Source: an uncultured Chromatiaceae bacterium (lineage in GTDB: Bacteria > Pseudomonadota > Gammaproteobacteria > DRLM01). Taken from it: a stretch of 64,000 nt of DNA. The position numbers were made by a program, and so were the translations under genes. This document shows, in pieces, positions 29,799 to 53,020 of the stretch (the stretch's first letter is position 1; every line of letters starts with the position of its first letter). The notes beneath the pieces were generated by a model. The model was given only the letters and a program-made list of their open reading frames with translations. It was not told the DNA's origin and ran no database searches. The DNA lies in assembly GCA_945787555.1 (NCBI GenBank), contig CALZJG010000137.1, forward strand, positions 532 through 64,531. The letters are read 5' to 3'.

Positions 29799-31538
29799 GT
29801 GAGCGCTCTCATGTACACCTCAGTCAAAATCTGCTGTAGTCAACTTCTGCTACTTACGCTGCTTGTGTTGCCAAGCGGATGGGTTTTGGCGCAAGAAGAT
29901 GGGGCTGGCGCTGTTGAAAACGCGTCGATGTCGCCGTTAGTGGCGGAAGGCGATGCTTTAATTGAGAGAGTAGACGGGCTTAAAAAGAAGATCTCAAAAT
30001 GGCAGCAGATATTTCAGCATGCTAGCGGCGAAGATCGTGCCGTTGCGGCAACGCAAATCACACGTCAAGAGACGGAACTGCGCCATACGCTGGACGCCCT
30101 GATCAAACACTTCGCGCAACGCCGTAGCGAAGGATTGGCCAGCGAGGCATTACAGAATAGCCTAGCGCACTTGGTTGAAGAGGAGTCTCAGCGCGTTCAA
30201 GAACAGATCAAGCGAGCACAAGCGGCGGTTGCAGAATTGCGCACAGGGCGCGAAGCGCTGGCGCCATCGGAACTCCTGGCCCGTGAGCAGCTGTTGACAG
30301 AAGCGAATAAGGAGCTGAATCAACTACTCAAAGCACTGCTGAGCAATAGTGAGCGTCAAGTGACCCTCCAGCTTAACGCCGAGGCACCGTTGGCCGCGCT
30401 CGATAGCCTGTTAACAGAGCGGGCCGATATGCTGGCCGGGCGGGTCGAATTTGTGCAACAGCAATTGACGCAGCTAGCTAAACGCCTTGCTAAGGCCGCC
30501 AAGGGAGACCAAGAGGCGCTGGAAACGCAAAGAAGAGCCTTCCTAGAGAAGAAGCGCAACGCGACCAGCAGTCTGGCGGCGGTGTTGGCTTTGATGGATA
30601 AGCGGGCAATTGAGACCTCAGACTATAGTCAACTATTGATCAAGGCAACCGGTGAAATTAGCGGTGAGACGCTTGATACCAAAGTGCTCGTCGGATTGTC
30701 GCAACAGTGGCTTGATAGCGCCAAGGTTTGGCTTGTTGAGTATGGCCCGGGAATAGTCGTCAAGGTATTGGTCTTTATTGGCATTCTACTGGTCTTTAAG
30801 GTTCTATCAGGATTTGTAGGCCGCGTGGCGCGAAAAGCGATCAAGGCCTCTAAGGTGGCATTATCGCAACTGCTGCAAGAGTTTTTCATTTCGTTGTCGG
30901 CCAAAGTCGTCATGTTGATCGGTTTTCTGATTGCGATTTCACAGCTCGGCATTGAAATTGGACCGCTTTTGGCCGGTCTCGGTGTAGTTGGCTTTATAGT
31001 TGGCTTTGCCTTGCAGGATACGTTGTCTAACTTTGCTTCTGGACTAATGATTTTGATCTATCGTCCCTACGATGTTGGTGATGTAATCGAAGCCGGCGGG
31101 GTGATGGGAAAAGTCGATCAAATGAGCTTGGTCTCCACTACCATTTTGACTTTCGATAATCAGAAACTGGTTATTCCCAATAGCAAAATCTGGGGCGATG
31201 TCATTCGTAATGTTACCGCGCAAGATAGTCGTCGCGTCGACATGGTTTTTGGTATTGGCTATGCGGATGACCATGATAAGGCCGAAAGAGTGTTGCGAGA
31301 TATTATCGCTCAGCATCCTTTGGTGTTGGCTCAGCCTGAGCCGGTAATTAAGTTGCACACGCTGGGAGAGTCATCGGTCGATTTTATTGTGCGGCCGTGG
31401 GCGCGGACCAGCGACTATTGGGCAGTGTACTGGGATGTGACCCGCACTGTGAAACTGCGTTTCGACGCTGAAGAGATTTCGATTCCGTTCCCGCAACGGG
31501 ATGTACATATATACAATGCTTTGCCCAAGGCAACGTAA
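29799..31538 (+). CDS. Mechanosensitive ion channel, MscS family, with an N-terminal periplasmic coiled-coil domain
   Basis: Signal peptide (LLLLTLLVLPSGWVLAQ), a long coiled-coil region, then transmembrane helices and the MscS pore/beta-domain signature (GFALQDTLSNFASGLMILIYRPYDVGDVIEAGGVMGKVDQMSLVSTTILTFDNQKLVIPNSKI). Confidence 0.8.
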   Translation: MSALMYTSVKICCSQLLLLTLLVLPSGWVLAQEDGAGAVENASMSPLVAEGDALIERVDGLKKKISKWQQIFQHASGEDRAVAATQITRQETELRHTLDALIKHFAQRRSEGLASEALQNSLAHLVEEESQRVQEQIKRAQAAVAELRTGREALAPSELLAREQLLTEANKELNQLLKALLSNSERQVTLQLNAEAPLAALDSLLTERADMLAGRVEFVQQQLTQLAKRLAKAAKGDQEALETQRRAFLEKKRNATSSLAAVLALMDKRAIETSDYSQLLIKATGEISGETLDTKVLVGLSQQWLDSAKVWLVEYGPGIVVKVLVFIGILLVFKVLSGFVGRVARKAIKASKVALSQLLQEFFISLSAKVVMLIGFLIAISQLGIEIGPLLAGLGVVGFIVGFALQDTLSNFASGLMILIYRPYDVGDVIEAGGVMGKVDQMSLVSTTILTFDNQKLVIPNSKIWGDVIRNVTAQDSRRVDMVFGIGYADDHDKAERVLRDIIAQHPLVLAQPEPVIKLHTLGESSVDFIVRPWARTSDYWAVYWDVTRTVKLRFDAEEISIPFPQRDVHIYNALPKAT

Positions 31539-31915: not shown

Positions 31916-33097
31916 TCAATAGCCCCATAATGCGAGTAATTGTTGGGACTCCAGCGGCGAATCATTAGTCGCCGTTTCCTTAATGGCATACTCCCGTTGC
32001 CCGCAATGGCGCACTAGAGGTTTGCCATAGGTGACGCCGCGCGGCGCGATGAGGCTAGCCACACGGGGAGAGCTATCGCTCTTGGCGCGGTGAGTGACAA
32101 CGGCAATCTCACCATTATAGAGCCGTACCATCCCTCCGGGAGGAAACACGCCTAGCTCCTTGATAAAGGAATAGGCCAACGACTCATCCACCTCCTTGCC
32201 CTTGCTCAAAAACAGATCACGCAGTGCCAGGGTTGGCAACATCGGCACCCGATAGGCCCGCTCAGAGATCTTGGCATGATAGATATCTGCCAAACTGATT
32301 ATGCGCGCACCCACCTCGATTTCGTCACCGACCAGGCCCTTGGGGTATCCGCTGCCATCGACGCGCTCATGATGGTGCAGCACGATGTTCAGCCAATCTT
32401 GATCATCGACACCGGCCGCCTTGAGCAAAGAGACACTAATTTCGGAATGGCGTTGAATTTGCTCCCGCTGCTTCTCGCTGGCGGGTTCCAGCTGCATCTG
32501 CAAGCAGTCCTGCAGCTCAAACATCCCCACATTGGCGGTCAGCACGGCGGCCAATGTCTTGCGTCGTACTGCCGGTGGCATGCCCACATGCGCACAGACC
32601 AGCTCGCACAATAAAGCGCAATGGATCGGGTGCCTGACGATATAGGAGCCCTTTTTTACCAGATGGATCGCACTGAGGGCGGCGTCGGAATCTTCAGTGC
32701 ACAATAACTGGATATCCGCGCACAGCATGCCGACATCGAAACGAATGTCGCGCAGTTTACCGTCCGCCACACCCCGCAAGATGTCGAATAACCGCCCCAT
32801 GAAATCATGAATGCGTGAGAAGGGATTATCCTCAGAATTACCCTCTGATTGATATCGATACTCCTGCACGGCTTGCGCTTTGCCTTCGTCCTCCTCCTGG
32901 GCGAGCACCTCGGCCTCTCCCGCCTCTCGATACAGCCCCTTTTCAAACATAATCTCTAATTGACGCTCGCTCTTGACGATGGTGCCCTCATGCAAGAGGA
33001 CCTTTCCCGCTTTATTGAATACGGTCCAGCCTATGGGCTGGTTGACAAGGATCTCAGAGTCCTTGATCTTGATATGATTAACTGGTTTCTCGCTCAT
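31916..33097 (-). CDS. HD-GYP domain phosphodiesterase (c-di-GMP hydrolase family)
   Basis: HD motif (HPIHCALLCELVCAH) and the downstream HHHERVDGSGYP block, which is diagnostic of HD-GYP. Confidence 0.8.
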   Translation of the reverse strand: MSEKPVNHIKIKDSEILVNQPIGWTVFNKAGKVLLHEGTIVKSERQLEIMFEKGLYREAGEAEVLAQEEDEGKAQAVQEYRYQSEGNSEDNPFSRIHDFMGRLFDILRGVADGKLRDIRFDVGMLCADIQLLCTEDSDAALSAIHLVKKGSYIVRHPIHCALLCELVCAHVGMPPAVRRKTLAAVLTANVGMFELQDCLQMQLEPASEKQREQIQRHSEISVSLLKAAGVDDQDWLNIVLHHHERVDGSGYPKGLVGDEIEVGARIISLADIYHAKISERAYRVPMLPTLALRDLFLSKGKEVDESLAYSFIKELGVFPPGGMVRLYNGEIAVVTHRAKSDSSPRVASLIAPRGVTYGKPLVRHCGQREYAIKETATNDSPLESQQLLALWGY

Positions 33098-33515: not shown

Positions 33516-34805
33516 CTATTCAGGCGGCCTTTCCTCTTCAAAGCTGAGCGCCTGCAACTCGAGACCCTCTATTTCTTGTAGAGACTTTCCGGCGATCCCC
33601 TGCAAGTCGCCATACATGCCTACCGTGGCGCCCATGACGCGCTCGATCTGGGCTTCGCGCTTGGCCCATTGCTTCATGATGGCCTTTCTTTCCTTATCCA
33701 GATCGGCCTGCATGGTGGAAAATGCTTCGACGATGGCCTCCACGCGGTGGCGAAAACGCGGGCCGGTGAGGTACTGGTAGACCATTTCGGTTTTGGTTTG
33801 CTGGCCTTCGGAAGCCTGTCGTGCAGTGGCAATGTCCAGCAAGGTCTGGCGCAGAATCGCCGCAACCGGCAAGGCGGCGCGAGGATGCGTGACCCAGATG
33901 CCGTCTACCATTGCGAATGTCTCTATGCCCTTGGGCAATACCTGACTCACGATGACGGCAATATCCGCCTTGGCGGTGCGTTGATCCTCGCGCAACTTGG
34001 CCAACCAGGGTTCGCTCCAGTTCTTGGTGCGTTTGGTCTCCCACAATATAGTGCCGCTCGCCTGGCCGCTGGCGCTGACGACACGCTGCAACGCATCGCC
34101 GCCAAACTCACCCTTGGGGACAGGCTCGATAACATCGAAAGGGAATTTGTCGTGCAACAGGTTTTCAAGTTCGAGCTCTTGCACTTCGCCCTGTAGTTGC
34201 TGCGAACCTTGTTCGGCGCGGCGCTTGAGATCCTCGATTTGCTTCTGCATCGCGGCGATGGTCTGCTCTTTCTCCATGACCTTGAGCTTCTGTTCGTCCT
34301 CGGCCTCTTTTTTGGCTTGCTCGCGGATAGTCGTGAGACCTTGTTGCACGCGCTTTTCAACAGTGAGTTCCAGCTCGCGTTTGGCATCATCGAGTTCGCG
34401 CTGCTTCTTGATGAGCAGCGCCTGGGCCTGTTGCGCCTCGGCAAGTTTTTCATCCCGAATCTTCAGCACAGCTTGCAAGTCGGCCAGTTCCCGCGTCTTC
34501 GATTCCAGATCGGTGGCGGCCGCCTGTTTGGCTTTCTTCGCCTCCTCCGCCACGATCCGGGCGCGATCCATTTTCAATTGCTCTTCCACTCGACCGGCGA
34601 CCTGCTCATCGAGTCGGTGCTTGGCCTCTGCCAGTTGCTGTTCCTTCTCGCGCGCGGCTTGTTCGCGCTGGGCGATGTCGCGGTCCTTCTGTGCCAGTTG
34701 CTGCTCGTATTGCTTGCGGGTACTCGCGATCAATGGCGCCGCCAAGGACTCGGTGAGCTTGATTTGGGTTTGGCAGCTGGGGCAAATGATGGTGGGCTCT
34801 GTCAT
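33516..34805 (-). CDS. DUF2130 domain-containing protein (N-terminal Zn-ribbon-like CPxC...C then long coiled coil)
   Basis: MTEPTIICPSCQTQIKLTESLAAPLI is the typical DUF2130 start. It is followed by an extended charged coiled coil (QREQAAREKEQQLAEAKHRLDEQ...) and a conserved C-terminal domain. Confidence 0.6.
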   Translation of the reverse strand: MTEPTIICPSCQTQIKLTESLAAPLIASTRKQYEQQLAQKDRDIAQREQAAREKEQQLAEAKHRLDEQVAGRVEEQLKMDRARIVAEEAKKAKQAAATDLESKTRELADLQAVLKIRDEKLAEAQQAQALLIKKQRELDDAKRELELTVEKRVQQGLTTIREQAKKEAEDEQKLKVMEKEQTIAAMQKQIEDLKRRAEQGSQQLQGEVQELELENLLHDKFPFDVIEPVPKGEFGGDALQRVVSASGQASGTILWETKRTKNWSEPWLAKLREDQRTAKADIAVIVSQVLPKGIETFAMVDGIWVTHPRAALPVAAILRQTLLDIATARQASEGQQTKTEMVYQYLTGPRFRHRVEAIVEAFSTMQADLDKERKAIMKQWAKREAQIERVMGATVGMYGDLQGIAGKSLQEIEGLELQALSFEEERPPE

Positions 34806-35071
34806 CAATGGTTCCTTGGGTGCGTGCAGCAAAGCTCGAGGCTATATAGCACATCACTAGTTTTCCTCGCCTGTCGTTCCAGTGTTGTAGGCGCGACGAG
34901 GTCATTTCCTTTCACAAGAAAGGATCCTAACACTTTGTTATATATAGAGGATACATCTTGAGCACGTTGAGGTGTAGACGGAGGCGGAATATCAAAGCGG
35001 CGGGAGATTGACCTGAGTGCTAAGGAACTGGACCGCTGCCGCCATCCATGGCAGCAGCACCCGGCGCCGCA

Positions 35072-36295
35072 TCAATAATCAGACAGCTCGGCCTCATAAC
35101 TCAGACCCTTGGCCCTGGCCTGCTCCCTCACCGTGCCGTAGATTTTCACATCCAAAGAGTCCTTGGCGGCATCGCTCTCCTCCACCTTTTCCTTCAGGAA
35201 GCTGGAGCGCTGCTCGGTCAGTTCATCAATCTGTTTTTTCAGCTCATCACGTCTTGCCGCCGTCGTTTCGATCACCGTCTGGCGCTCCGCCGGCGCCATG
35301 ACCTGCAGGGAGGCGGGCAGCTTGGCCGTTTCAATGGTGTCGAGATCGACACGGCCACTGGCCACATCGTCCACCAGTTCATTTTCACCCAACAGATTGT
35401 CCGCCCCGCTGGCCGAGGCGTTAAAGGTGGCCCGTCGTGCACGTGATGACACAGAGGCCTCTTCGTGCAGTTTCTTGGTCGCCTCGAGTTTGCGTTGCTG
35501 GATTTTCTTTTGTTCGGCATCACCATAAAACAGCCGGGTATCATCCAGCTTGGCGGACAACTCGGCCAGCTTACCATCATAGGGCGTGCTGATGGCCACG
35601 GCACTGCCACCCTGCTCGACCTGGAAGAAATCACCGCCTGCCGCCTGGGCAATGCGCTGCCATTCTGTTTCAGTGCCACGATTCTGACCGCATTGAATCG
35701 TATTCACAACGATGCCTTTGTGCTGCGCCACCTTGAGGGTTTGCGGATATTGCACCTCATCCTGATAATCCATGTGCGGCGGCGCATCGCCCACCAGAAA
35801 CACGACTTTATAGGTGTCCTGATCCGGACTCCAGCTGATCCGATTGACCGCATCATGCAAGGCCTGGTTGACGCTCTCCGGGCCGTCGCCGCCGCCCTGG
35901 GCACTGAAGCCGATCAGGGCGGCATAGAGGCTGTCGAGATCGGTGGAGAGATCGACCACGCGGGTGACATACTCATCGCCGCGATCGCGATAGGCCACCA
36001 AACCGATTTTGATCTCGGGCGCCGGCTGGGCCGAGGCCATGTTGCTGGCGATGGACCAGATTTTCTCCTTGGCGGCCTCGATCAGCCCGCCCATGCTGCC
36101 GGTCGTGTCCAACACAAACACCACCTCCACCTTGGGCCGCTGGTTGAATTGTTGATGCGTCGTGGGCACGTCGGGCACCACCACCGGATCCATCGGCAAG
36201 GGCGTGATGGCACCGGTGCTCTGTTTGAGCGGAACAAAAACCACTGTGGCAGCGGTCAACGCAAATAGTGTGATGGCAAAGAATTTGGTCTTCAT
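35072..36295 (-). CDS. Secreted von Willebrand factor A (vWA) domain protein with a C-terminal coiled-coil region
   Basis: Signal peptide MKTKFFAITLFALTAATVVFV. MIDAS-containing vWA fold (VVFVLDTTGSMGG...GGGDGPES...FLVGDAPPH). The C-terminal ~150 aa are Lys/Glu-rich and coiled-coil. Confidence 0.75.
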   Translation of the reverse strand: MKTKFFAITLFALTAATVVFVPLKQSTGAITPLPMDPVVVPDVPTTHQQFNQRPKVEVVFVLDTTGSMGGLIEAAKEKIWSIASNMASAQPAPEIKIGLVAYRDRGDEYVTRVVDLSTDLDSLYAALIGFSAQGGGDGPESVNQALHDAVNRISWSPDQDTYKVVFLVGDAPPHMDYQDEVQYPQTLKVAQHKGIVVNTIQCGQNRGTETEWQRIAQAAGGDFFQVEQGGSAVAISTPYDGKLAELSAKLDDTRLFYGDAEQKKIQQRKLEATKKLHEEASVSSRARRATFNASASGADNLLGENELVDDVASGRVDLDTIETAKLPASLQVMAPAERQTVIETTAARRDELKKQIDELTEQRSSFLKEKVEESDAAKDSLDVKIYGTVREQARAKGLSYEAELSDY

Positions 36296-36315
36296 GGTGA
36301 GCTCCTATTTTAAAT

Positions 36316-36888
36316 TTAACTGAGGGAGAGTTTGCCCAGCGCCGCCTCGGCGTTGCGATGGGCGCGCATGAAAGGATCAGCACGATCCGCATTTGCAGGA
36401 GTATTGGCGTGCCGCCCCTGAACCGACCACTGGACCGGAATCAGCGCGAACAGGGCCTGGACGAGAAACAGGGTCCACAAAGCCAGCAACAGGCTGCCAC
36501 TGTTGAGAAAGGCCCACAGTCCCGCCACCAGCCCGAAGCCACTCAGGCCCAGATCCACCAGGGAGGAAATCACGCTGCGATAATAGAGCAGAGATCGAAT
36601 TAGCCACAGCACGGCAGCTAGCAGGATTACAACCCCAACAAAGGGGGGGTCGAGCAGCCAGACGCCGAACAAGCTTAGCGCCCAACACAGGACGGCGGTC
36701 ATGCGTCCGCGCTTTTTCGGGCTGCGCGCCAACAGATAGACCAGATACGCAGATCCAATCAAGGCAAGCATGGCGCGGGCGCTAAAGGCAATATTAAAGA
36801 ACGTAGCCATCACGCCATAGAGCGCCGCCCCGGCCACACTGGCCACCACCGCCACCAATACGCCTTCGTAAAATCCAGGCCGCTTCAT
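36316..36888 (-). CDS. Integral membrane protein (4 predicted TM helices), function unknown
   Basis: 190 aa with four hydrophobic segments (GVLVAVVASVAGAALYGV; MLALIGSAYLVYLL; AVLCWALSLFGVWLL...VVILLAAVLWLI; LVAGLWAFLN...LLLALWTLFLVQALFALI). Its start overlaps the stop of the upstream PspA-like gene by 4 bp. Confidence 0.5.
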   Translation of the reverse strand: MKRPGFYEGVLVAVVASVAGAALYGVMATFFNIAFSARAMLALIGSAYLVYLLARSPKKRGRMTAVLCWALSLFGVWLLDPPFVGVVILLAAVLWLIRSLLYYRSVISSLVDLGLSGFGLVAGLWAFLNSGSLLLALWTLFLVQALFALIPVQWSVQGRHANTPANADRADPFMRAHRNAEAALGKLSLS

Positions 36889-37418
36889 GACACACTCCTT
36901 TGCTGCTTTTCTCGCAGCAGCGCCACTTCCACGTCGGCATCAGTAATCGTGTTCGTCACCGGCCAGGGCGGCTCGCTGGCCTGCGGCGCTGGTTCATCAA
37001 CCAGCAGTTCCAGCTTCTGGCGCATGGCTTCTAGCCGCGGCCCATAGTCATCGATGAGTCTCTGCGTCGCGTCGCTATCGCGCAGCAATGCTTGCTGCCT
37101 TGAAGCCAGCGACTTATGCAACTGCTGATGTTCCAGCTTGCGCTTGAGCAACACTCGCGCCAGCGCCTCGTTATTCGCCAGGAAACAGACATCCAGCTCG
37201 TCATTGATATTGCTGACGGCCTCGGCCAGCTCCTGCAAGCGACTGTCCAATTGAGTCTGCTGTTGGTGCTGGGTATTCAGCTGTAGGCGTTCACGCGCCA
37301 GCGCCTCCTCCATTTCCCTGACCGATTGGCGGAGCAACATCGCCGGCTCTTCCAGCTGGTCGATCACGGCATGCAGATCCGCCCTGAAGAGATGAGTGAT
37401 ACGATTAATCAGTGCCAT
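36885..37418 (-). CDS. PspA/IM30 (phage shock protein A / Vipp1 / ESCRT-III-like) family protein
   Basis: N-terminus MALINRITHLFRADLHAVIDQLEEPAMLLRQSVREMEEALARERLQL aligns with the PspA start (M.IF.R......N..LDKAEDP.KM....I..ME..L.E.R). The remainder is coiled-coil and shorter than canonical PspA (177 aa). Confidence 0.55.
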   Translation of the reverse strand: MALINRITHLFRADLHAVIDQLEEPAMLLRQSVREMEEALARERLQLNTQHQQQTQLDSRLQELAEAVSNINDELDVCFLANNEALARVLLKRKLEHQQLHKSLASRQQALLRDSDATQRLIDDYGPRLEAMRQKLELLVDEPAPQASEPPWPVTNTITDADVEVALLREKQQRSVS

Positions 37419-37498
37419 GTCGGGGTCCTCTCGTGGTTGATGATGCGTTCAGTCTAGGCGCGGAGAGGACGACACTGTAGACAGACTTTGGTAAAAGC

Positions 37499-37527
37499 TT
37501 TACGCGGATGTTTACAAAACATTTACA
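37499..37527. promoter_or_regulatory. Three direct TTTAC(A/G) hexamer repeats spaced 12 and 11 bp apart in the divergent intergenic region; candidate OmpR-family response-regulator binding site
   Basis: tttacg (37499-37504), tttaca (37511-37516) and tttaca (37522-37527). Their one-helical-turn periodicity is typical of OmpR/PhoB-family direct-repeat operators. They lie ~40-65 bp upstream of the response-regulator start (37565) and ~80-110 bp upstream of the divergent pspA-like gene. Confidence 0.4.
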
Positions 37528-37564
37528 TGTGGTTAGAGCATCAAACTGCTAGGCTGATGACGTT

Positions 37565-38266
37565 ATGCATAAGAAAACACGCATATTGATCGTCGAGGAC
37601 GAAGAGGCCATTCGCACCGGCCTGGTCGACGTGTTGGTCTTTCACGGCTTCGAGGTCGAGTGGGCCGGCTACGGGCCCGAGGGATTGACCAAGGCGTTGA
37701 GCGGGACCTTTGATTTACTGCTGCTCGACGTCATGCTGCCGGGCATGGATGGTTTCGAGATTTGCAATCGCATCCGCGAGCAAGACCCCGCCCAGCCCAT
37801 CATCATGCTCACCGCCAAGAGCAGCGATGAAGACATCATCCAGGGCCTGAGCCTGGGCGCGGATGATTATGTCAGCAAGCCCTTCTCGGTGGCCCAACTG
37901 GTATTGCGTATCCAGGCGGTATTGCGCCGCGCCCGCGTCGGCGCCGAGACCCACACACGTATTCAACTGGGTGATGCGTTGGACATCGACATCCTGAACC
38001 TAGCCGGACAGTTGAACGGCAAGACCCTCCACTTCACTCGTCGTGAAATGGAAATCCTGCAATACCTGCACAGCAACGCCGAGCGGCCGGTACCGCGCGA
38101 GGAACTGCTCAACAAGGTCTGGGGTTACGCCAAGACCATGGACATCGAAACCCGCACCGTGGACATTCACATGGCCAAGCTGCGGCGCAAAATCGAACCC
38201 GACCCAAGTTCGCCGCGCTTTCTGGTGACCGTGCGCGGCGCCGGCTATCGCCTGATGCCGGACTGA
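37565..38266 (+). CDS. Two-component response regulator, OmpR/PhoB family (receiver + winged-helix DNA-binding domain)
   Basis: Receiver motifs (ILIVEDE...DLLLLDVMLPGMDGF...MLTAK) and a C-terminal winged helix (LTRREMEILQYL......VDIHMAKLRRKIE......TVRGAGYRL). Confidence 0.9.
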   Translation: MHKKTRILIVEDEEAIRTGLVDVLVFHGFEVEWAGYGPEGLTKALSGTFDLLLLDVMLPGMDGFEICNRIREQDPAQPIIMLTAKSSDEDIIQGLSLGADDYVSKPFSVAQLVLRIQAVLRRARVGAETHTRIQLGDALDIDILNLAGQLNGKTLHFTRREMEILQYLHSNAERPVPREELLNKVWGYAKTMDIETRTVDIHMAKLRRKIEPDPSSPRFLVTVRGAGYRLMPD

Positions 38267-38268
38267 GC

Positions 38269-40350
38269 ATGCGTCGCAACCTCAACAGTCTGCGCCTGAT
38301 CCTGGGGCTGTTCTTTCTGGCCCTGGCCGTCCCCACGGCTATTCTCATCTATCAAGCCCTGAGCCAGATGAAGTGGGAATCGTTCCTGCAGCATCAGGTC
38401 ATGGCCGAAGAACTGAGCACGCGCATAGACAAACGATTGAACCGGCTCATCGCCGAGGAAGAGCAACGCGCCTACGCCGACTATACGTTTTTGAATATCG
38501 CCGGTGATGCGAACAGTAACTTTTTGCAGCGCTCCCCCCTCGCCGCGTTTCCGGTTCAGGCCGACATCCCCGGCGTGCTGGGCTATTTTCAGGTGGATGA
38601 TCAGGGTGACTTCAGTACACCCTTTTTGCCTGACCAAGACGCGAGTCAGAATTTCGGTATCAACGCCGACGAACAACGATCACGCCTGGCCCTGCAGCAA
38701 CAGATTCATGACATCTTGAGTCACAACCAACTGGTCAAACAAACAAAGAAAGATCAATCACCGGCTAGAAGAAAGGATGCCCCGGCGTTGGATACTGCAG
38801 CGTCCTCCACCGCCGAGTCTGAACTGGCCGCGGACATCGCGCTGCAGGGCATGGCGGGCAAGGAAGAAGCGGACAGCGACTCCGCACTGACCAGCTTTGA
38901 CAGCTTGGAAAAACGTGATGACACCCGCCAGCGCGAATCAAGACTGGCGCAGTCATTGGGCCGCGTCGATGAGCTGAAGCTGAAATCTAGATTCGAGCAA
39001 CAGGCCACTAGCGCCCCACGTGAAGCCAGCAAACAGCGTCTACTGGATGAAAAGCGCGCCGCGCGTAAAGAGCAGACTATTTTGCCCGAGACCTTGCCGC
39101 CCCAACCCATCGCCAGCCCGCCACCAAGTACAGCCCAAAGCCCGGTTCAACACTTGGCACCAAATCCAGAGCAAGCGGCCATCCGCATCACCACCTTTGA
39201 GAGTGAAGTGGACCCGTTCCGCTTCAGCCTGCTCGACAGCGGTCACTTCGTCCTGTTTCGCAAAGTCTGGCGCAATGGCGCCCGTTATACCCAGGGAATC
39301 TTGCTCGACCAGCGCAGCTTTGTTCAGGGTGTGATCGAATCCGCCTTTAATGAGACCACCCTGTCCGAGATGAGCAATTTGGTGCTCGCCTTTCAGGGTG
39401 ACGTGCTGTCCGTGATCAGCGGCCGCAGCAATCGTAACTTATACTCAAGCGCAGCCGACCTACGAGGGGAACTGCTCTATCAAACACGATTTTCCGCGCC
39501 GCTGAGCGAGGTGGAGTTGATCTACAGCATCAACCACTTGCCGGCCGGGCCGGGCGCCCAGGTGGTCAGCTGGACCGCGCTGGTATTGGTCGTGCTGTTG
39601 CTGGGTGGCTGCCTGCTGTTCTATCGCCTGGGTAAAAGGCAGCTGACCTTGGCACAGCAGCAGCAGGACTTTGTTTCCGCCGTCAGCCATGAACTGAAGA
39701 CCCCCCTAACCTCGATCCGCATGTACGGCGAAATGCTGCGCGAAGGCTGGGCTGATGAAAACAAAAAAAAGCAGTACTACGACTATATCTTCGCCGAAAG
39801 CGAACGACTGTCACGCCTAATCAACAATGTCCTGCAACTGGCGCGCATGAATCGCAATGAAATCCACATCGAACTCAAAGAGGTGTCCGTCAATGAAATC
39901 ATGGACACCCTACGTTCGAAGCTCACCTCACAGTTGGAACACAGCGGTTTTGAATTCAATCTCATCGATGACTGCGAGCAGTCGAGTCTGAAAGTCCAGA
40001 TCGATATGGATCTGTTCACCCAAATCATCATCAACTTGGTGGACAATGCCGTGAAATTTTCGCGTAGCGCGGACCATAAACGCATCGACGTGCGCTCTGT
40101 GCAAAGCGGTGAGCAAAACATTATTTTCAGCGTGCGCGACTACGGCCCCGGCATTGCCAAAGACCAGCTGAAAAAGATCTTTCAGCTATTTTACCGCGCT
40201 GAAAATGAACTCACCCGACAAACGGTCGGCACCGGCATCGGCCTGGCCTTAGTACAACAACTGGCGCGCCACATGCACGCCCAAGTGGATGTCATCAACC
40301 GCCAACCGGGCGCCGAATTCACTATCGCGTTCAAACTCGACCGAATCTGA
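38269..40350 (+). CDS. Sensor histidine kinase with a large periplasmic domain
   Basis: N-terminal TM helix, a ~400-aa extracytoplasmic domain, a second TM helix (VVSWTALVLVVLLLGGCLLFY), H-box SHELKTPLTSIRMYGEML, and HATPase_c N/G1/G2 boxes (NLVDNAVKFS, RDYGPGI, GTGIGLAL). A 2-bp gap after the response-regulator gene means they are co-transcribed. Confidence 0.85.
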   Translation: MRRNLNSLRLILGLFFLALAVPTAILIYQALSQMKWESFLQHQVMAEELSTRIDKRLNRLIAEEEQRAYADYTFLNIAGDANSNFLQRSPLAAFPVQADIPGVLGYFQVDDQGDFSTPFLPDQDASQNFGINADEQRSRLALQQQIHDILSHNQLVKQTKKDQSPARRKDAPALDTAASSTAESELAADIALQGMAGKEEADSDSALTSFDSLEKRDDTRQRESRLAQSLGRVDELKLKSRFEQQATSAPREASKQRLLDEKRAARKEQTILPETLPPQPIASPPPSTAQSPVQHLAPNPEQAAIRITTFESEVDPFRFSLLDSGHFVLFRKVWRNGARYTQGILLDQRSFVQGVIESAFNETTLSEMSNLVLAFQGDVLSVISGRSNRNLYSSAADLRGELLYQTRFSAPLSEVELIYSINHLPAGPGAQVVSWTALVLVVLLLGGCLLFYRLGKRQLTLAQQQQDFVSAVSHELKTPLTSIRMYGEMLREGWADENKKKQYYDYIFAESERLSRLINNVLQLARMNRNEIHIELKEVSVNEIMDTLRSKLTSQLEHSGFEFNLIDDCEQSSLKVQIDMDLFTQIIINLVDNAVKFSRSADHKRIDVRSVQSGEQNIIFSVRDYGPGIAKDQLKKIFQLFYRAENELTRQTVGTGIGLALVQQLARHMHAQVDVINRQPGAEFTIAFKLDRI

Positions 40351-40705: not shown

Positions 40706-41578
40706 TCAATCATCCTTGAGCATCTTGCGTATCTTCTTGAAGCGCTTCAACACCTCGTTATCCAACACCGGGTAACTCAGGCTCAGTTCGCGCAGCCGCT
40801 GGACGATGATTTCCGCCACCGTCAGGCGCATGTAGGGCTTGTCATCGGCGGGGATCACATACCACGGCGCCCAGGGGTGGGAGGTGGCGGCCACCGCTTG
40901 TTCATAGGCTTGCATGTACTTCTTCCAGTCTTTTCTCTCCGCTACATCGGCTTCGGAAAACTTCCAGTTCTTGTTCGGGTCGTCGATGCGGGCGAGAAAC
41001 CGCTCGCGCTGCTCCTTGCGCGAGATATTGAGCCAGAACTTCAATATCACCGTGCCGTTGCGCGCCAAATGTTTTTCATGATCGCAGATCGATTCGTAGC
41101 GTTCCTGCCATAACGTCTCCAGAACATCAGACTGGGGCAGCCGTTGCGCCGTTAAGTATTCAGGGTGCACGCGCACCGCCAGCACCTCTTCGTAATAACT
41201 GCGGTTGAAGATCCCGATGCGTCCCCGTTCCGGCAAGCGGCAGCTGGTGCGCCACAGGAAATCATGATCGAGTTCTTCCTTACTCGGCTGCTTGAAAGAA
41301 AAGACCTGACAGCCGGCCGGATCGATGCCGCTCATCACCGCACGTATGGTACTGTCCTTACCCGCTGCATCCATGGCCTGAAAGATCAACAACAAGGAGT
41401 GATGATCATGGGCGTAGAGCTTGCGCTGCAGCTCGTCCAGTTCATCGATCTGTTCTTTAAGCCGCTCCCTCGCCTTCCCTTTGCGTGGCGCCTCTTGCGG
41501 CGGCGCGGTCGGCATACTGGCATGTTTGAAACTGCTATCGAAGGGCGCGAGATAGGGGCTGTCGACGACTTTGTACAT
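40706..41578 (-). CDS. ppk2: Polyphosphate kinase 2 (PPK2) family protein
   Basis: Walker A-like motif in FQAMDAAGKDST, and the PPK2 lid/Walker B region (GIFNRSYYEEVLAVRVHPE, WYVIPADDK). Size and layout are typical of single-domain PPK2. Confidence 0.85.
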   Translation of the reverse strand: MYKVVDSPYLAPFDSSFKHASMPTAPPQEAPRKGKARERLKEQIDELDELQRKLYAHDHHSLLLIFQAMDAAGKDSTIRAVMSGIDPAGCQVFSFKQPSKEELDHDFLWRTSCRLPERGRIGIFNRSYYEEVLAVRVHPEYLTAQRLPQSDVLETLWQERYESICDHEKHLARNGTVILKFWLNISRKEQRERFLARIDDPNKNWKFSEADVAERKDWKKYMQAYEQAVAATSHPWAPWYVIPADDKPYMRLTVAEIIVQRLRELSLSYPVLDNEVLKRFKKIRKMLKDD

Positions 41579-45565: not shown

Positions 45566-45958
45566 ATGGACAACGTTGAAGCACTGCTAAAAACGGCGCT
45601 TGCAGAAGTCGAGCAGATGTTGAGCACCAAGACGGTGATTGGCGAGCCCGTCACAATTGAAGGCCATACCCTCATTCCATTAGTAAGCATCGGTTTTGGA
45701 TATGGTGCCGGGGGTGGCAGCGGCAAAGGTGACGATCCCATGAAGGGCGAAGGCGCGGGGGCAGGTACCGGCGGCGGTGGTGGCGTCAGACCGGTTGCAA
45801 TCATCATCATAAATAAGGACGGTGTGCGGGTAGAGTCCATCAAAGGTGGTGCGACCATCGCCTTTGAAAAGATCGGTGAAGCCATCGGCAAATGCATGGA
45901 AAGCCACACTCCGGGCAAAAGCGCAGAGAAGGGTGAAGGCAAACACGGGCCATGCTAG
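45566..45958 (+). CDS. GerW/YtfJ family protein (sporulation protein YtfJ-like, Gly-rich loop)
   Basis: VIGEPVTIEGHTLIPLVSIGFGYGAGGGSGKGD......GGGGGVRPVAIIIINKDGVRVESI matches the GerW/YtfJ pattern (vG.P..v.G.tiIPv.kvsFGfg.GGG......GGGGG...PvA.ivi..g.v....i). Confidence 0.6.
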   Translation: MDNVEALLKTALAEVEQMLSTKTVIGEPVTIEGHTLIPLVSIGFGYGAGGGSGKGDDPMKGEGAGAGTGGGGGVRPVAIIIINKDGVRVESIKGGATIAFEKIGEAIGKCMESHTPGKSAEKGEGKHGPC

Positions 45959-46548
45959 TTGTTTTACTCGGACTAGTTCTCGGCATCCTAATCCTTCTGG
46001 CGATGCCATTCGATGTGACCTTTCGTCTAACCAAGGATGACGGCGTCCGACTGCGCTTATCTATTGCCTGGGCGTTTGGCCTCCTGTCTAAGGAATTGGG
46101 CAAGACCACCGACAAGCAAGTTGCGGAGAAACCAAAAACCAAAAAAAGACGCCGTAAGCAAGCGCGAGCTGGCAAGGCTAAAGCCAAAGCGGCGATGGCC
46201 TTCATGCGCAGCCCAGGCATGCCCGCACGCTTACTAGGACTGGCGCGGAATATGTGGCGGCAATTACATGTTCGCCAGCTAAACCTGCACCTTACATTCG
46301 GACTGGATGACCCCGCCGATACTGGGCAACTATTCGGTGCACTGGCACCGGCCCTGATTCACACCGATCGATTGTCCAGACTTGATTGCCAGGTACGTCC
46401 GGATTTTTCACAGCCGATTCTGCTGGTAAACGGTGGTGGCCAGCTCCGGGTGATTCCCTTGACTATCATTGGCGTCATGATCGCCTTTTTTCTGTCACCT
46501 GCCTGCTGGCGGGCCTTTACCGCTGCCGCCAAGGCCAACCAATCATAG
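45952..46548 (+). CDS. DUF2953-like membrane protein (usual partner of GerW/YtfJ)
   Basis: N-terminal TM helix (MLVVLLGLVLGILILLAMPF). The layout, with a Lys/Arg-rich linker and a second C-terminal hydrophobic segment, is as in DUF2953 proteins, which are normally encoded beside ytfJ. It overlaps the GerW-like gene by 7 bp. Confidence 0.5.
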   Translation: MLVVLLGLVLGILILLAMPFDVTFRLTKDDGVRLRLSIAWAFGLLSKELGKTTDKQVAEKPKTKKRRRKQARAGKAKAKAAMAFMRSPGMPARLLGLARNMWRQLHVRQLNLHLTFGLDDPADTGQLFGALAPALIHTDRLSRLDCQVRPDFSQPILLVNGGGQLRVIPLTIIGVMIAFFLSPACWRAFTAAAKANQS

Positions 46549-46836
46549 AATCGATCGAGTCTGCCCGTATAGATTTCACTGATCTACTCAACAATAACGC
46601 ATCAAATGCGAGCTCGTATTGTCGGCGTCACATACTCTGAAGCCTTGCTTTCAGCCCCTAATGCCCTTACCCGCGATTTCACTCCTCCAGGTCGAATCGG
46701 CTGTGTGTTTGCGCGCAGCTCGTTGATGACGATGGCACCAGCGAGCAGTGGGCCTTGCCACTGTCTATGTCGGCGGCGCGAACTCCCGGCTTACCCTGCC
46801 CTCCGCCCGGGCTACATTTCCCCCTTCCCCGTCCTG

Positions 46837-46886
46837 TTGACATACCCGGATACTGTACATAAGATCAGTACTGTATATTTAATCAG
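46837..46886 (+). promoter_or_regulatory. SOS-type promoter of the imuA-imuB-dnaE2 cassette: sigma70 -35/-10 with two tandem LexA-box-like palindromes CTGT-N8-TCAG
   Basis: ttgaca (46837-46842), then 17 nt, then taagat (46860-46865). Box 1 is CTGTACATAAGATCAG (46853-46868), overlapping the -10. Box 2 is CTGTATATTTAATCAG (46871-46886). Both resemble the beta/gamma-proteobacterial LexA consensus TACTGT-N8-ACAGTA with one 3' half-site mismatch. imuA starts at 46943. Confidence 0.55.
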
Positions 46887-46942
46887 CCATCGGTGGGTAG
46901 CGTGCGCCAGAGCCAATAGCAGAGCCAACAGGGACAACCATT

Positions 46943-47593
46943 ATGAACACCGCCTTCGAATCCTTGCTCAATCATCCGCAGATTTGGCGCGGCCGGCGCC
47001 CGAGTTGGACGGATGCGGAGTCCATCGCCAGCGGCTATGCCGAGCTCGATGCGCAACTTCCCGGCGGCGGCTGGCCGCGCGGGACGCTCAGCGAAATCCT
47101 GCTGCCCCGGCCCGGCATCGGCGAGCTGCGTTTGCTGCTGCCCGCGCTGGCGCGTTTGCATGACGAAAAGAAATGGATCGCCTTGATCGCCCCGCCCTAT
47201 ATCCCTTATGCGCCGGCCTGGCAGGCCAGCGGTCTCGATCTCTCCCGTTTGCTATGGGTGCGCCCACGCGATGCCGCCGATCAGTTGTGGGCGGTCGAGC
47301 AGGCGTTGCGGGCCGGCACTTGCGGGGCGGTGCTTGCCTGGCCGGGCAGTACGCCCAGTTTCCAACAACTGCGCCGTCTGCAACTGGCCGCGGAGAGCGG
47401 CCGCAGTTGGGGGGTGTTGTTTCGCCCGCCCGCCAGCGCGGCGCAGCCGACGCCCGCATCGGTGCGCCTGCACATACAGGCCCACTCCCGCACGCTCGCC
47501 GTCCATCTGCTGAAACGCCGCGGTGCCTGGGCCGGCGAGCCGGTGCAGATCACGCTGCCCTTCCCCGCCGCACCAAGCGTCGTGCCCAGTTAA
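46943..47593 (+). CDS. imuA: ImuA, SOS-response translesion-synthesis-associated protein (RecA/SulA-like fold)
   Basis: 216 aa, first gene of a three-gene cassette whose second and third genes are clearly imuB and dnaE2. The conserved ImuA blocks W.G...S.G...LP.GG...G.L.E........GE..LLLPALA and the C-terminal ...RL.L...R.G are present. Confidence 0.7.
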   Translation: MNTAFESLLNHPQIWRGRRPSWTDAESIASGYAELDAQLPGGGWPRGTLSEILLPRPGIGELRLLLPALARLHDEKKWIALIAPPYIPYAPAWQASGLDLSRLLWVRPRDAADQLWAVEQALRAGTCGAVLAWPGSTPSFQQLRRLQLAAESGRSWGVLFRPPASAAQPTPASVRLHIQAHSRTLAVHLLKRRGAWAGEPVQITLPFPAAPSVVPS

Positions 47594-47617
47594 TCAATTT
47601 TATGAGCATGCGCTGTC

Positions 47618-49054
47618 ATGTTGTGGCTGTGTCTGTATTTTCCGCAATTGCCCTTGGAGATTTTTTCGCGCGTGGAAGCCACTGCCTCCCCCTGGATCAT
47701 CACCGAGGGTAAAGGCGCACGCCAAACCATCTTCCTGTGCAACGCGCTCGCCGCCTCGCTCGGCATTCGGCCCGGCATGTCGCCCGGGGCGGCTTATGCT
47801 TTGACCGCTACCCTGCGGGTACGCGCGCGCGATGCCGCCGCCGAGCGACAGGCGTTGGCGGCGCTCGCCGCTTGGGCGGGGCAGTTCACGTCGCTGGTCA
47901 GTCTGTCGCCGCCGCAGGCCCTGCTGCTGGAGATCGCCGGCAGTCTGGATTACTTCGGCGGCATCGACGCCTTGCTGCGGCGAGTGCGTCGCCGCGCCGC
48001 CCGGCTCGGTTATGTCGTTGAGTGGGCCGTGGCGCCCACGCCCTTGAGCGCCGAGGTGTTCGCGCGGGTGCCGCTCGCCGCGCCGGTGCTGCACGCGCAA
48101 GATCTCGCCGCCGCGCTGCGTGATGTGCCGCTGCCCCTGCTCGGCTTGGAGGACAAGCTGTTGCACGCGTTGCACGGCATCGGCACGCGTCATGTCGGCG
48201 ATGTGCTGCGCCTGCCGCGCGCCGATCTGGCGCGGCGTTGCGGTCCCGCCTTGATTGAATATCTCGATCGGCTGCTGGGACGGCGCAGCGATCCCCGCGC
48301 GCCCTATGTGCCGCCGCCGCGTTTCGAGCGCCAGCTCCCCTTACCTAGCGAGACGACAGACAGCGAGGCCTTGTTGTTTCCCGCGCGACGTTTGCTGCAG
48401 GAATTAGCCGGCTTTCTGATCGCCCGGCAGGCCGGCACCCAACAGTTGCAGTGGACACTGGCGCATCATCACCAGCCCGCGACGCTGATCTTGCAGGGTC
48501 TCGCCGCGCCCAACCGCGACCCGCCGCATTTGCTCAAACTATTGCGTGAGCGTTTGGCCCGCAGTTCGATCGAACATCCCGTTGAGGGCATCGCCTTACG
48601 GGTGACGGAGTTGCAGCCGCTGCGGCCGCACGCCCTAACGCTGGACGGCGAACGGGAAGCGCCCGCGCAAGACTGGCCGCAGCTAGTCGAAACCTTGCGC
48701 GCCCGCCTCGGCGATGAGGCGGTGCAGGGTCTGCAATGTCGCGACGACCACCGCCCGGAACAGGCCTGGCAAGCCAGCCCGCTAGGCAGCCGCGGCCCCG
48801 CGCTCTCCCACCTCGGCCGACCGTTGTGGTTGTTGCCCGAGCCCGTGAGTTTGCGCCATCGCGACGGCGCGCCTTACCTGGATGCGCCTTTGCATATCGA
48901 AGTCGGTCCGGAACGGCTGGAAAGCGGCTGGTGGGACGGTGGCGACATCACCCGCGATTATTTCATCGCCCGCGATGAGCGGCACAGCCGCTACTGGATT
49001 TTTCGCGAGCGGCGCGGTGAGCGGAGGTGGTTTCTCCATGGCTATTTCGCCTGA
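47618..49054 (+). CDS. imuB: ImuB, Y-family DNA polymerase-like protein without catalytic residues
   Basis: N-terminus MLWLCLYFPQLPLEIF is the signature ImuB start (MLWLaLhFP.LpLEvf). A UmuC-like palm/fingers region and a long C-terminal extension follow. It lies 25 bp after imuA. Confidence 0.8.
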   Translation: MLWLCLYFPQLPLEIFSRVEATASPWIITEGKGARQTIFLCNALAASLGIRPGMSPGAAYALTATLRVRARDAAAERQALAALAAWAGQFTSLVSLSPPQALLLEIAGSLDYFGGIDALLRRVRRRAARLGYVVEWAVAPTPLSAEVFARVPLAAPVLHAQDLAAALRDVPLPLLGLEDKLLHALHGIGTRHVGDVLRLPRADLARRCGPALIEYLDRLLGRRSDPRAPYVPPPRFERQLPLPSETTDSEALLFPARRLLQELAGFLIARQAGTQQLQWTLAHHHQPATLILQGLAAPNRDPPHLLKLLRERLARSSIEHPVEGIALRVTELQPLRPHALTLDGEREAPAQDWPQLVETLRARLGDEAVQGLQCRDDHRPEQAWQASPLGSRGPALSHLGRPLWLLPEPVSLRHRDGAPYLDAPLHIEVGPERLESGWWDGGDITRDYFIARDERHSRYWIFRERRGERRWFLHGYFA

Positions 49055-49115
49055 GGAGGTTTTGATTGATTGCACAGGCATGAACCTTACAGCGTAGGAC
49101 TGCCACGCAGGAGCT

Positions 49116-49173
49116 GTCATCTTGTCATCTCGACCGTAGCCGGTTTGTCATCTCGACCGCAGGGAGAGATCTT
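49116..49173. repeat. Left-end repeat block of the GIY-YIG element: tgtcatc plus two tandem ~23-bp half-TIR units ending cagggagagatctt
   Basis: ctgtcatcttgtcatctcgaccgtagc cggtttgtcatctcgaccgcagggagagatctt, ~35 bp upstream of the GIY-YIG start codon. Confidence 0.7.
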
Positions 49174-49208
49174 GTATTAAGGTGAAGCTTAATTCTGGAG
49201 AGATTGCC

Positions 49209-49532: not shown

Positions 49533-49669
49533 TTTGTTATATCGACCGCAGCCGGTTTGTCATCTCGACCGCAGGAAGTTTGTCATCTCGACCGCAGGGA
49601 GAAATCTTAACGCCCCAGCATGTTCGAAACGCACGAAGTTCATCATGCAAATCCGCGCCAGATTTCTCC
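49511..49669. repeat. Right-side repeat block of the GIY-YIG element: four tandem ~23-bp half-TIR units, core, and partial inverted arm
   Basis: tcgtcatttcgaccggaggtag / tttgttatatcgaccgcagccgg / tttgtcatctcgaccgcaggaag / tttgtcatctcgaccgcagggagaaatctt (49511-49608), and the inverted remnant agatttctcc at 49660-49669. Confidence 0.75.
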
Positions 49670-52976: not shown

Positions 52977-53020
52977 CCGTAGGTCAGGAGGCGTGTGAGT
53001 ACTCCCTGACATATACACCT

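Follow-up and report, generated by a model that had tools for sequence, protein, structure and literature searches.

A 64,000-nucleotide stretch of DNA from an uncultured Chromatiaceae bacterium (taken from contig CALZJG010000137.1; hereafter the window) carries, between positions 35072 and 40350, five adjacent genes that very probably form one co-regulated functional unit. Three of them encode a short protein of the PspA/IM30 family, a membrane protein with six predicted transmembrane (TM) helices and a putatively exported von Willebrand factor A (vWA) protein with a metal ion-dependent adhesion site (MIDAS) motif, while the other two, on the opposite strand, encode a response regulator of the OmpR/PhoB type and a sensor histidine kinase with a large periplasmic sensor region. 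The carriers of this gene set number about 300 species, mostly marine gammaproteobacteria, and a direct repeat between the two divergent operons is conserved together with the genes. We consider it probable, on balance, that the five genes are a self-contained regulatory cassette acting as an envelope-stress response.

Gene content, synteny and hosts of the cassette

A scan for relatives of the membrane protein, in which each of 185,579 species was represented by one genome, returned 308 positive genomes. Eighty loci were fetched out of these carrier genomes, and their synteny was scored by tblastn with the five proteins of the window as queries; agreement of order and strand was judged only where the contig reaches far enough. 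An earlier note on this DNA, made from the sequence alone, had proposed that the three-gene operon and the divergent two-component system make up a self-contained module, and the fetched loci bear this out; a lack of conserved synteny, which the note had named among the refuting outcomes, is clearly contradicted. In practically all 80 loci, which come from other species, the trio and the two-component system are kept in the order kinase(-), regulator(-) / PspA-like(+), membrane(+), vWA(+), and the complete set of five genes is present in 54 of them. The same arrangement is read in independent gene calls on a 2.9-Mb metagenomic contig: VWA(404)–unnamed(188)–PspA_IM30(177) / Response_reg/Trans_reg_C(233)–HisKA/HATPase_c(698). 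Clustering of all open reading frames (ORFs) in the loci revealed no gene beyond the five that is common to the loci, and the clusters shared outside the cassette were either shadow ORFs or the flanks of five closely related Thiodiazotropha loci. Since the flanking genes vary between loci, the five genes constitute a self-contained cassette. The nearest fetched locus, in an uncultured Chromatiaceae metagenome-assembled genome (MAG), is 73-85% identical to the window; across the fetched loci the regulator shows 58-85% identity, and the periplasmic part of the kinase is conserved too (37-71% identity by tblastn).

All five ORFs of the window lie at the positions that the earlier note had given them (Table 1). 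The regulator and kinase genes are 2 nt apart. The stop codon of the pspA-like gene and the start codon of the membrane-protein gene overlap by 4 bp (ATGA), with an AGGAG Shine-Dalgarno sequence upstream, which agrees with the translational coupling noticed before, and the end of the former gene coincides with the start of the latter in most loci. The vWA gene starts 20 nt past the membrane-protein gene, and has an AGGAG of its own.

The hosts are mostly sediment sulfur-oxidisers and methylotrophs. Those that bear names include Chromatiaceae, Candidatus Thiodiazotropha (symbionts of lucinid clams), Sedimenticola and Ectothiorhodospiraceae, further Methylophaga and Methylococcales, and also Woeseiaceae, Porticoccaceae and Litoribacillus. 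Among the carriers in culture are Sedimenticola selenatireducens, S. thiotaurini, S. hydrogenitrophicus, Litoribacillus peritrichatus and Methylophaga species. Four loci (L004, L008, L011 and L075) come from MAGs labelled 'Flavobacteriales bacterium' or 'Halobacteria archaeon'. Their kinase, PspA-like and membrane proteins are 40-55% identical to those of the window, on a par with the gammaproteobacterial loci, and the odd labels are likely the result of contig mis-binning or mislabelling. A few cassettes look degenerate: at L040:6067-7468 the regulator is gone and the kinase has lost its first 265 residues, at L061:4034-7208 (Litoribacillus peritrichatus) the kinase match is limited to the C-terminal part, and in L044 the matches to the regulator and the PspA-like protein are partial.

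The divergent intergenic region

The regulator gene and the pspA-like gene are separated by 146 bp (37419-37564), in which the earlier note had pointed out three TTTAC(A/G) hexamers at 12- and 11-bp spacing. The hexamers are present as described (TTTACG at 37499-37504, TTTACA at 37511-37516 and TTTACA at 37522-37527). As candidate regulatory sites they fare differently: the 11-bp-spaced pair is conserved in other species, whereas the third hexamer, the TTTACG at 12-bp spacing, is not. On the strand of the pspA-like operon, the conserved pair reads as the direct repeat TGTAAA-N5-TGTAAA, which has one match in the 64-kb window even with one mismatch (about 0.09 expected by chance).

To compare the loci, 73 intergenic regions were all turned to the strand of the pspA-like gene, and offsets were mostly counted over 72 loci. 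The core of the repeat, GTAAA-N6-GTAAA (hereafter the GTAAA box), is exact in 67 of the 73 regions, and is found in 72 when GTAAC is permitted in the first half-site; the consensus of the oriented regions is ATGTAAATtTTTTGTAAAt. When the 977 kb of fetched DNA were scanned on both strands, the motif was found 71 times, once per locus and always at the intergenic position. The distance from the repeat to the ATG of the pspA-like gene is 108-120 nt in 65 of 72 loci, while that to the ATG of the regulator gene varies from 30 to 283 nt, which indicates that the repeat belongs to the promoter of the pspA-like operon. Direct repeats with an 11-bp period are the classic site type for dimers of the OmpR/PhoB family, which bind head-to-tail. 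The earlier suggestion that the hexamers fit binding by an OmpR-family protein has thus gained a conserved direct repeat at a fixed distance from the pspA-like operon, and we predict that the regulator of the cassette is likely to bind the GTAAA box.

Several further conserved elements had been missed in the earlier note, namely an inverted half-site, CTGTCTAC and a -10-like hexamer on each strand. The inverted GTAAA half-site, ggTTTTACCaAA, lies 20 bp from repeat 2 (window 37490-37497), and CTGTCTAC is found at 37477-37484, its conserved form being CTGtCTAc. The offsets of these blocks are fixed, with TTTAC in place in 71 of 72 loci and G[TC]CT in 70 of 72. A third conserved block, CCTAgACTg, stands about 20 nt beyond CTGtCTAc. 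Here, 64 of 72 loci have TAnnnT at an offset of 70-71 nt from the first repeat (background rate about 14%), and its interior varies (TAGACT, TAAACT, TACGAT, TACACT, TATTGT and others). Such retention of TA…T is the signature of a sigma-70 -10 hexamer, and TAGACT in the window is the probable -10 of the pspA-like operon promoter. On the opposite strand, 54 of 72 loci show TGnTAnnnT at a distance of 21-23 nt from the proximal half-site, and TGcTAGGCT is the probable extended -10 of the regulator-kinase operon.

With these candidate -10 elements as reference, the promoter of the pspA-like operon would have the box at about -82 to -67 and that of the regulator at about -51 to -35, so that one box could serve both divergent promoters, in activation and in autoregulation. 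A consensus scan of the intergenic region found no sigma-70 promoter, which, together with -10-like hexamers at fixed offsets, fits dependence on an activator. Because the extended -10 ends 9 nt before the ATG of the regulator gene and a Shine-Dalgarno sequence is absent, the regulator mRNA would be nearly leaderless in the window. The same geometry is seen in about 22 loci with the shortest intergenic regions, and loci with long regions would have a normal leader.

Other readings of the conserved blocks were rejected. Patterns for sigma-54, sigma-32 and sigma-E/ECF were compared with the blocks by eye and none fitted, and no GG-N10-GC-type element is present among the conserved intergenic blocks. 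An RNA hairpin of the form GTCTA…TAGAC in the 5' leader was also dismissed: the folding equals that of shuffled sequences (mean z -0.13), variants in the arms are uncompensated, and the right arm behaves as TAnnnT. At one locus (L073, a MAG labelled Magnetospiraceae), an insert of about 6 kb (L073:1313-7467), which carries a GGDEF diguanylate-cyclase gene (6034-7320), separates the two-component system from the operon; the GTAAA box, TTTACC, CTGTCT and the TACACT -10 all remain beside the operon.

Table 1. Coordinates of the cassette genes and of the candidate regulatory elements in the window (AF2, AlphaFold2; MIDAS, metal ion-dependent adhesion site; ORF, open reading frame; TM, transmembrane)
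Feature	Position	Strand	Basis
vWA/MIDAS protein gene, 407 aa	35072-36295	-	ORF, Pfam VWA_4 and VWA
vWA protein layout	signal peptide ~29 aa, Pro-rich linker, vWA domain ~55-235, tail 236-407 (residues)	-	
MIDAS codons D63-T-T-G-S67 (DxTxS)	36095-36109	-	translation, conservation
Membrane protein gene, 190 aa	36316-36888	-	ORF, AF2 six TM helices
PspA/IM30-family gene, 177 aa	36885-37418	-	ORF, Pfam PF04012
Candidate -10 hexamer TAGACT, pspA-like operon	37451-37456	-	TAnnnT conservation
Conserved block cTTTTACCaAA..CTGtCTAc between repeat and -10	37477-37497	-	conservation across loci
Direct repeat TGTAAA-N5-TGTAAA (GTAAA-N6-GTAAA, 11-bp period), predicted regulator site	37511-37527	-	conservation
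Candidate extended -10 TGcTAGGCT, regulator-kinase operon	37547-37555	+	TGnTAnnnT conservation
OmpR/PhoB-family response regulator gene, 233 aa	37565-38266	+	ORF, Pfam
Sensor histidine kinase gene, 693 aa	38269-40350	+	ORF, Pfam

The five proteins and their co-variation

Within the ESCRT-III superfamily, the PspA/IM30/Vipp1 proteins form the bacterial branch. The short PspA-like protein that the earlier note had recognised matches PF04012 (PspA_IM30) above the curated threshold (56.2 bits against a gathering score of 33.9, E 5e-15, profile positions 3-138 of 220). Its residues 1-118 align with residues 1-117 of E. coli PspA (4WHE, E 1.3e-4), and it is alignable from residue 1 with Vipp1 and sll0617 (E about 0.012-0.015); at the level of sequence, the N-terminal helix alpha0 and the alpha1-alpha3 hairpin are thus alignable with the solved PspA and Vipp1. 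The C-terminal helices alpha4 and alpha5 of canonical PspA (about 220 aa) are missing in the 177-aa protein, whose orthologues were seen at 177-198 aa. In 77 orthologues, the hairpin is followed by a variable linker and then by a conserved C-terminal motif, dedVEvAfLrEkq. The protein scores far below the equivalog cut-offs of both PspA (33.8 vs 243) and LiaH (35.8 vs 380). A homology between the PspA-like protein and the tail of the vWA protein, which a merged cluster had hinted at, was discarded as a clustering artefact (BLASTP E 0.18, no direct matches).

The membrane protein had been described as having four TM helices, which has to be corrected: its AlphaFold2 (AF2) model (predicted local distance difference test score, pLDDT, 83) gives six, at residues 6-30, 33-55, 60-79, 83-102, 106-130 and 133-148, which are followed by a short helix and a C-terminal amphipathic helix (172-189). 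The periplasmic loops are very short in the model. The positively charged N-terminus and the RS-rich loops between helices suggest that both ends are cytoplasmic. R98, D112 and Q144 are among the polar residues that never vary, and R55 comes close to invariance. No Pfam or NCBIfam family was found for this protein, and a Pfam search for weak matches at E<=10, which was also run for the kinase sensor and the vWA tail, returned noise only. Among solved structures, Foldseek against the PDB gave a best E of 1.8, and a profile search of the PDB gave nothing. A full HMMER scan placed the family at 991 clusters at 50% identity; the best 150 of these 991 matches are all stand-alone proteins of about 150-215 aa with no domain fusions among them, and the named members among the matches listed are hypothetical proteins, bar one with a generic transporter-permease label. 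Judged from family knowledge and from the translational coupling of the two genes, the six-TM protein is likely to be the membrane partner or anchor of the PspA-like protein.

The third product of the operon, taken earlier for a vWA/MIDAS protein with a signal peptide, matches VWA_4 (54.1 bits vs 27, 1.8e-14) and VWA (37.8 vs 23.8, 2.9e-9) of Pfam. The MIDAS-type motifs VVFvLDTTGSM, GGGDgPESVN and FLVGDAPpHMDY are conserved in 70 orthologues, LDTTGSM being kept in at least 90% of them, and the MIDAS motif is intact in sequence. The N-terminus consists of MKxK, about 15 hydrophobic residues, a conserved Pro and A-x-A-like sites (SxGA, ANA, ALA) at about 27-30, which, in a heuristic reading of the window protein and its orthologues compared, fits a cleavable Sec signal peptide. 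The tail of about 170 aa, a putative long coiled coil according to the earlier note, is conserved over its full length in the 70 orthologues, and it has no significant Pfam match (best E 0.04) and no sequence match in the PDB. In some loci (L017, L018, L062, L064, L066 and L079, probably also L004 and L076), including some Porticoccaceae MAGs, the third position of the operon is occupied by a second vWA subtype of 25-30% identity, which has a DTSSSM MIDAS and keeps the signal peptide and the tail. GDgPES and GDAPpH are conserved in both subtypes, with DxTxS in subtype 1 and DxSxS in subtype 2. The other four genes of the subtype-2 loci show ordinary divergence.

The two remaining genes encode an OmpR/PhoB-type two-component system, in which a regulator with a receiver and a winged-helix domain (Response_reg 4e-30 and Trans_reg_C 7e-25 in Pfam) is adjacent to a kinase with HisKA (465-528) and HATPase_c (581-691). 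GerE stays sub-threshold in the regulator (22.5 bits vs 23.5). The regulator shares 36% identity with E. coli CpxR, and lies below every NCBIfam equivalog cut-off, the best being MtrA (202 vs 300), with CpxR at 135 vs 341; similarly, the kinase scores 102 against the CpxA cut-off of 486. The first ~460 residues of the kinase are without a Pfam family. Between TM1 (about 8-31) and TM2 (from about 428) lies the sensor, at about 32-427 (nt 38362-39549); with about 395 aa it is in keeping with the periplasmic domain of about 400 aa noticed before. In the AF2 model (pLDDT 74), TM1 and a long stalk helix (2-65) are followed by an alpha/beta part to about 155, a low-confidence stretch (160-304) and a beta-rich part (305-421). 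TM2 continues as one helix into DHp, so that there is no HAMP domain. The stretch 160-304, on either side of which the sensor has a conserved alpha/beta part, is variable in sequence and length, yet it contains the invariant motifs QaaFD.L, LGRVEDLKL, KR..RKE..LPE and TFESEIDPFE, with F210, D211, L213, G231, E268 and P273 among its invariant residues. The sensor belongs to a family of 2147 relatives. It has no Pfam match, a profile search of the PDB gave nothing, and Foldseek with the full kinase model returned kinase cores only.

Co-variation between the parts was examined in 52 complete subtype-1 cassettes (the window and 51 fetched loci) by partial correlation of pairwise distances, with the other parts controlled; the sample is small, pairwise distances are interdependent and phylogeny is controlled in part. 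Under these limits, the partial correlation with the vWA protein is 0.44 for the periplasmic sensor of the kinase, 0.34 for the regulator, 0.23 for the six-TM protein, 0.22 for the PspA-like protein and -0.01 for the cytoplasmic part of the kinase. The tail of the vWA protein alone gives 0.41 with the kinase sensor. Among the pairs without vWA, that of the PspA-like and the six-TM proteins is the highest (0.34). Furthermore, in the three complete subtype-2 loci, the sensors are more diverged than the rest of the cassette predicts (z -2.4, -2.5 and -4.2), and the ratio of between- to within-subtype identity is 0.83-0.88 for sensor regions and 0.93-0.99 for the other parts. The sensor motifs mostly shift in subtype 2, from LPE to LPSQ or LPAQ and from DPFE to DAFQ, DAFE or GAFQ. 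These data are weak hints that the periplasmic vWA protein may contact the kinase sensor.

The neighbours of the cassette in the window, with the DUF2130, PPK2 and HD-GYP genes among them, stand outside it. Upstream, and not conserved with the cassette, are a gene at 29799-31538 for a mechanosensitive channel of the MscS family, which is extended N-terminally by about 300 aa, one at 31916-33097 for an HD_5 (HD-GYP-type) protein and one at 33516-34832 for a DUF2130 protein; the PPK2 gene lies downstream (40706-41578). Farther away on the (+) strand, two overlapping genes, at 45566-45958 and 45952-46548, code for a protein of the Spore_YtfJ family and one of DUF2953, respectively, 'sporulation' names that are odd for an apparent gammaproteobacterium. 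The GC content is 0.62-0.66 at 12001-16000 and 0.61-0.64 at 46001-56000, and about 0.53-0.58 in the rest of the window.

Proposed function, related systems and alternatives

Envelope or membrane stress is, by a modest margin of belief, the physiological role that we favour for the cassette. Polymers of PspA, LiaH and Vipp1 attach to membranes under stress and stabilise them, LiaI serves as the anchor of LiaH, and CpxP feeds back on CpxA. By joining such family knowledge (OmpR/PhoB dimers, PspA polymers, LiaI–LiaH, CpxP–CpxA) to the observed layout, we infer the binder of the box, the direction of regulation, the partnership of the PspA-like and six-TM proteins, the contact between the vWA protein and the sensor, and the nature of the signal. 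In the proposed mechanism, a periplasmic cue would activate the kinase through its large sensor of a new type, and the kinase would phosphorylate the OmpR/PhoB-type regulator, which would then bind GTAAA-N6-GTAAA in the shared divergent promoter region. From this box the regulator would activate the pspA-like operon, with more conserved sites reaching down to about -33, and would probably activate its own operon as well, through the extended -10 promoter. The short PspA/IM30 protein, with its presumed ESCRT-III fold, would act at the cytoplasmic face of the inner membrane, to which the co-translated six-TM protein, made in stoichiometric amounts, would recruit it. The Sec-exported vWA/MIDAS protein would work in the periplasm, possibly closing a feedback loop on the kinase sensor. 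A more specific form of this mechanism, which is speculative and unlikely, is a trans-envelope circuit in which the MIDAS of the vWA protein would clamp invariant short acidic motifs (FD211 or RKE268, for instance) in an otherwise disordered periplasmic loop of the kinase and set its activity in the manner of CpxP, and the kinase would drive a truncated PspA docked on a six-TM receptor of a new fold.

The earlier note had compared the cassette with LiaRS-LiaIH and PspF-PspABC. The layout is indeed analogous to both, but the cassette was found to belong to neither, and cpxP–cpxRA resembles it at least equally. LiaRS induces an operon that encodes LiaH, a member of the PspA family, and the small membrane protein LiaI, which recruits LiaH to the membrane (PMC9239133). 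The cassette likewise has a PspA-family gene and a membrane-protein gene in one operon beside a dedicated two-component system, with conserved promoter sites of the regulator type. However, its regulator has an OmpR/PhoB winged helix whereas LiaR is of the NarL/LuxR type, and its kinase combines about 395 aa of periplasmic sensor with the lack of a HAMP domain, whereas LiaS is an intramembrane-sensing kinase with HAMP and without a large extracytoplasmic domain. Moreover, LiaF- and LiaG-type genes are absent from the cassette and no LiaF-like gene was seen in any locus, the membrane protein, with its six TM helices, matches no Pfam family (LiaI-type families included), an exported vWA protein is added, and the hosts are Gram-negative, unlike Bacillus subtilis and the other Firmicutes in which Lia is found.

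In the Psp system, the effector PspA is encoded divergently from its regulator, with membrane-protein genes next to it (PMC11237479), and in the cassette, too, the PspA-family gene is divergent from the regulator gene and followed by a membrane-protein gene. On the other hand, the cassette has no sigma-54 enhancer-binding protein (PspF) and no sigma-54-type promoter, its sole regulator being of the OmpR type, and Pfam finds neither PspB nor PspC among the operon proteins. Its control would be exerted by a periplasmic phosphorelay and not, as in Psp, by sequestration of PspF by PspA, and its PspA-like protein, at 177 aa, is missing the C-terminal third.

With Cpx, the cassette shares a regulator-kinase operon divergent from the induced gene or genes for a periplasmic product, tandem GTAAA half-sites between the divergent operons (TTTAC-N5-TTTAC in E. 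coli cpxR–cpxP), a box position that fits autoregulation of the two-component system and, to judge from the co-variation, an exported product that may feed back on the kinase sensor. It differs from Cpx in that neither its regulator nor its kinase is an orthologue (see the scores above), its sensor is three times larger, unrelated and without HAMP, its periplasmic product is a vWA/MIDAS protein and not a member of the CpxP/Spy family, its operon adds PspA-family and six-TM proteins, and its repeat is oriented oppositely relative to the induced gene. As for the vWA protein, MoxR/Bat- and Ter-type clusters are known to combine a vWA fold and MIDAS with a bacterial envelope setting, but no MoxR AAA+ ATPase, TPR or Ter genes accompany the cassette, and its vWA protein has a conserved 170-aa tail without a family match.

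Among the alternatives to an envelope-stress response, the one that survives best, although it is unlikely, takes the vWA protein as the real effector of a sensing-and-binding system that serves no general stress response, with the PspA-like and six-TM proteins as accessories, for example for membrane buffering during export. The vWA protein is the most conserved product (55-65% identity), its tail being conserved from end to end, its MIDAS motif is intact, and it co-varies with a very large, dedicated periplasmic kinase sensor, which is typical of ligand sensing; the prevalence of sediment sulfur-oxidisers and methylotrophs among the hosts would also suit such a system. Yet the operon begins with the genes for the PspA-like and six-TM proteins, which are coupled in translation and always retained, and no transporter, enzyme or adhesin-assembly genes accompany the cassette. 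In addition, one vWA subtype can take the place of the other without a change in the remaining four parts, and thus the vWA protein looks like an exchangeable accessory, not the core.

A second alternative, which we regard as quite improbable, concerns the binder of the box: the GTAAA box could be a target of the global CpxR, or of another OmpR-family regulator, of the host, while the adjacent two-component system regulates elsewhere or indirectly. Both half-site and spacing of the repeat fall within the published CpxR consensus GTAAA-N4-8-GTAAA (PMC5063474), the same half-site stands between the divergent cpxR and cpxP genes of E. coli, and the regulator of the cassette is no CpxR orthologue. 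This explanation is opposed by the behaviour of the box, which follows the cassette into unrelated contexts in several gammaproteobacterial orders, always beside the cassette regulator, and which occupies a class-II-like position of the regulator's own promoter, as autoregulation predicts. A global regulator would also be expected to have more sites, and a second box is absent from the 977 kb of flanks, though these are a small sample. An anti-phage or abortive-infection island, in which membrane, coiled-coil and vWA proteins act jointly on infection, is very improbable indeed, for although the variable genomic neighbourhoods suggest mobility, vWA and coiled-coil proteins are known in several defence systems and the psp response was first noticed on phage infection, PADLOC finds nothing for the vWA and membrane proteins and weak coiled-coil noise for the PspA-like protein (E 0.002-0.005, 12.6-14.8 bits), Pfam detects no nuclease, NTPase or toxin domains, and an autoregulated two-component system that senses the periplasm is atypical of defence systems.

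A self-contained envelope-stress cassette therefore remains our preferred reading, and several points weigh against it. The C-terminal third of canonical PspA is missing, so that polymerisation and membrane protection by the PspA-like protein are an assumption. The six-TM protein has hardly any periplasmic loops and lacks known relatives, and it could function as a channel or as a sensor instead of an anchor. A vWA protein is not known as a partner in phage shock protein (PSP) systems, and family knowledge is no guide to its role. The co-evolution signals are weak and suggestive at most, with three complete subtype-2 loci, non-independent distances and phylogeny partly controlled. As regards transcription, the fit of the box to the CpxR consensus means that a host CpxR could act instead of, or beside, the cassette regulator, and the conserved sequence at about -52 to -33, which separates the box from the -10, misfits a standard sigma-70 -35, which leaves the promoter model incomplete.

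Large comparative-genomics surveys of PSP systems list many PspA neighbourhoods and two-component contexts (PMC11237479, PMC9239133). The terms vWA and von Willebrand are absent from the main text of both and from one supplement of one of them, vWA is likewise missing from a 2025 review on ESCRT-III-like systems of bacteria, and a direct literature search returned nothing relevant to the cassette. This is consistent with the earlier remark that a module of this composition had not been seen described, and within the searchable literature the cassette appears to be undescribed. Its architecture is new as a combination, in the set of partners and in the sensor; a PspA-family stress module is in itself not conceptually unexpected.

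The cassette is a compact natural system, in which the companions of a minimal PspA of 177 aa are a new six-TM protein, an exported vWA protein and a dedicated kinase whose periplasmic sensor is new. It is widespread, with about 308 species genomes and a membrane-protein family of about 1000 clusters at 50% identity, and its hosts are abundant organisms, i.e. sulfur-oxidisers of marine sediments, symbionts of lucinid clams and methylotrophs. Three uncharacterised domains, the kinase sensor, the six-TM protein and the vWA tail, gain a shared functional setting. If the link between the vWA protein and the sensor holds, the cassette would represent a new way to couple periplasmic sensing with membrane repair, and the trans-envelope circuit, if true, would couple the state of the periplasm to membrane remodelling at the cytoplasmic face within one five-gene unit.

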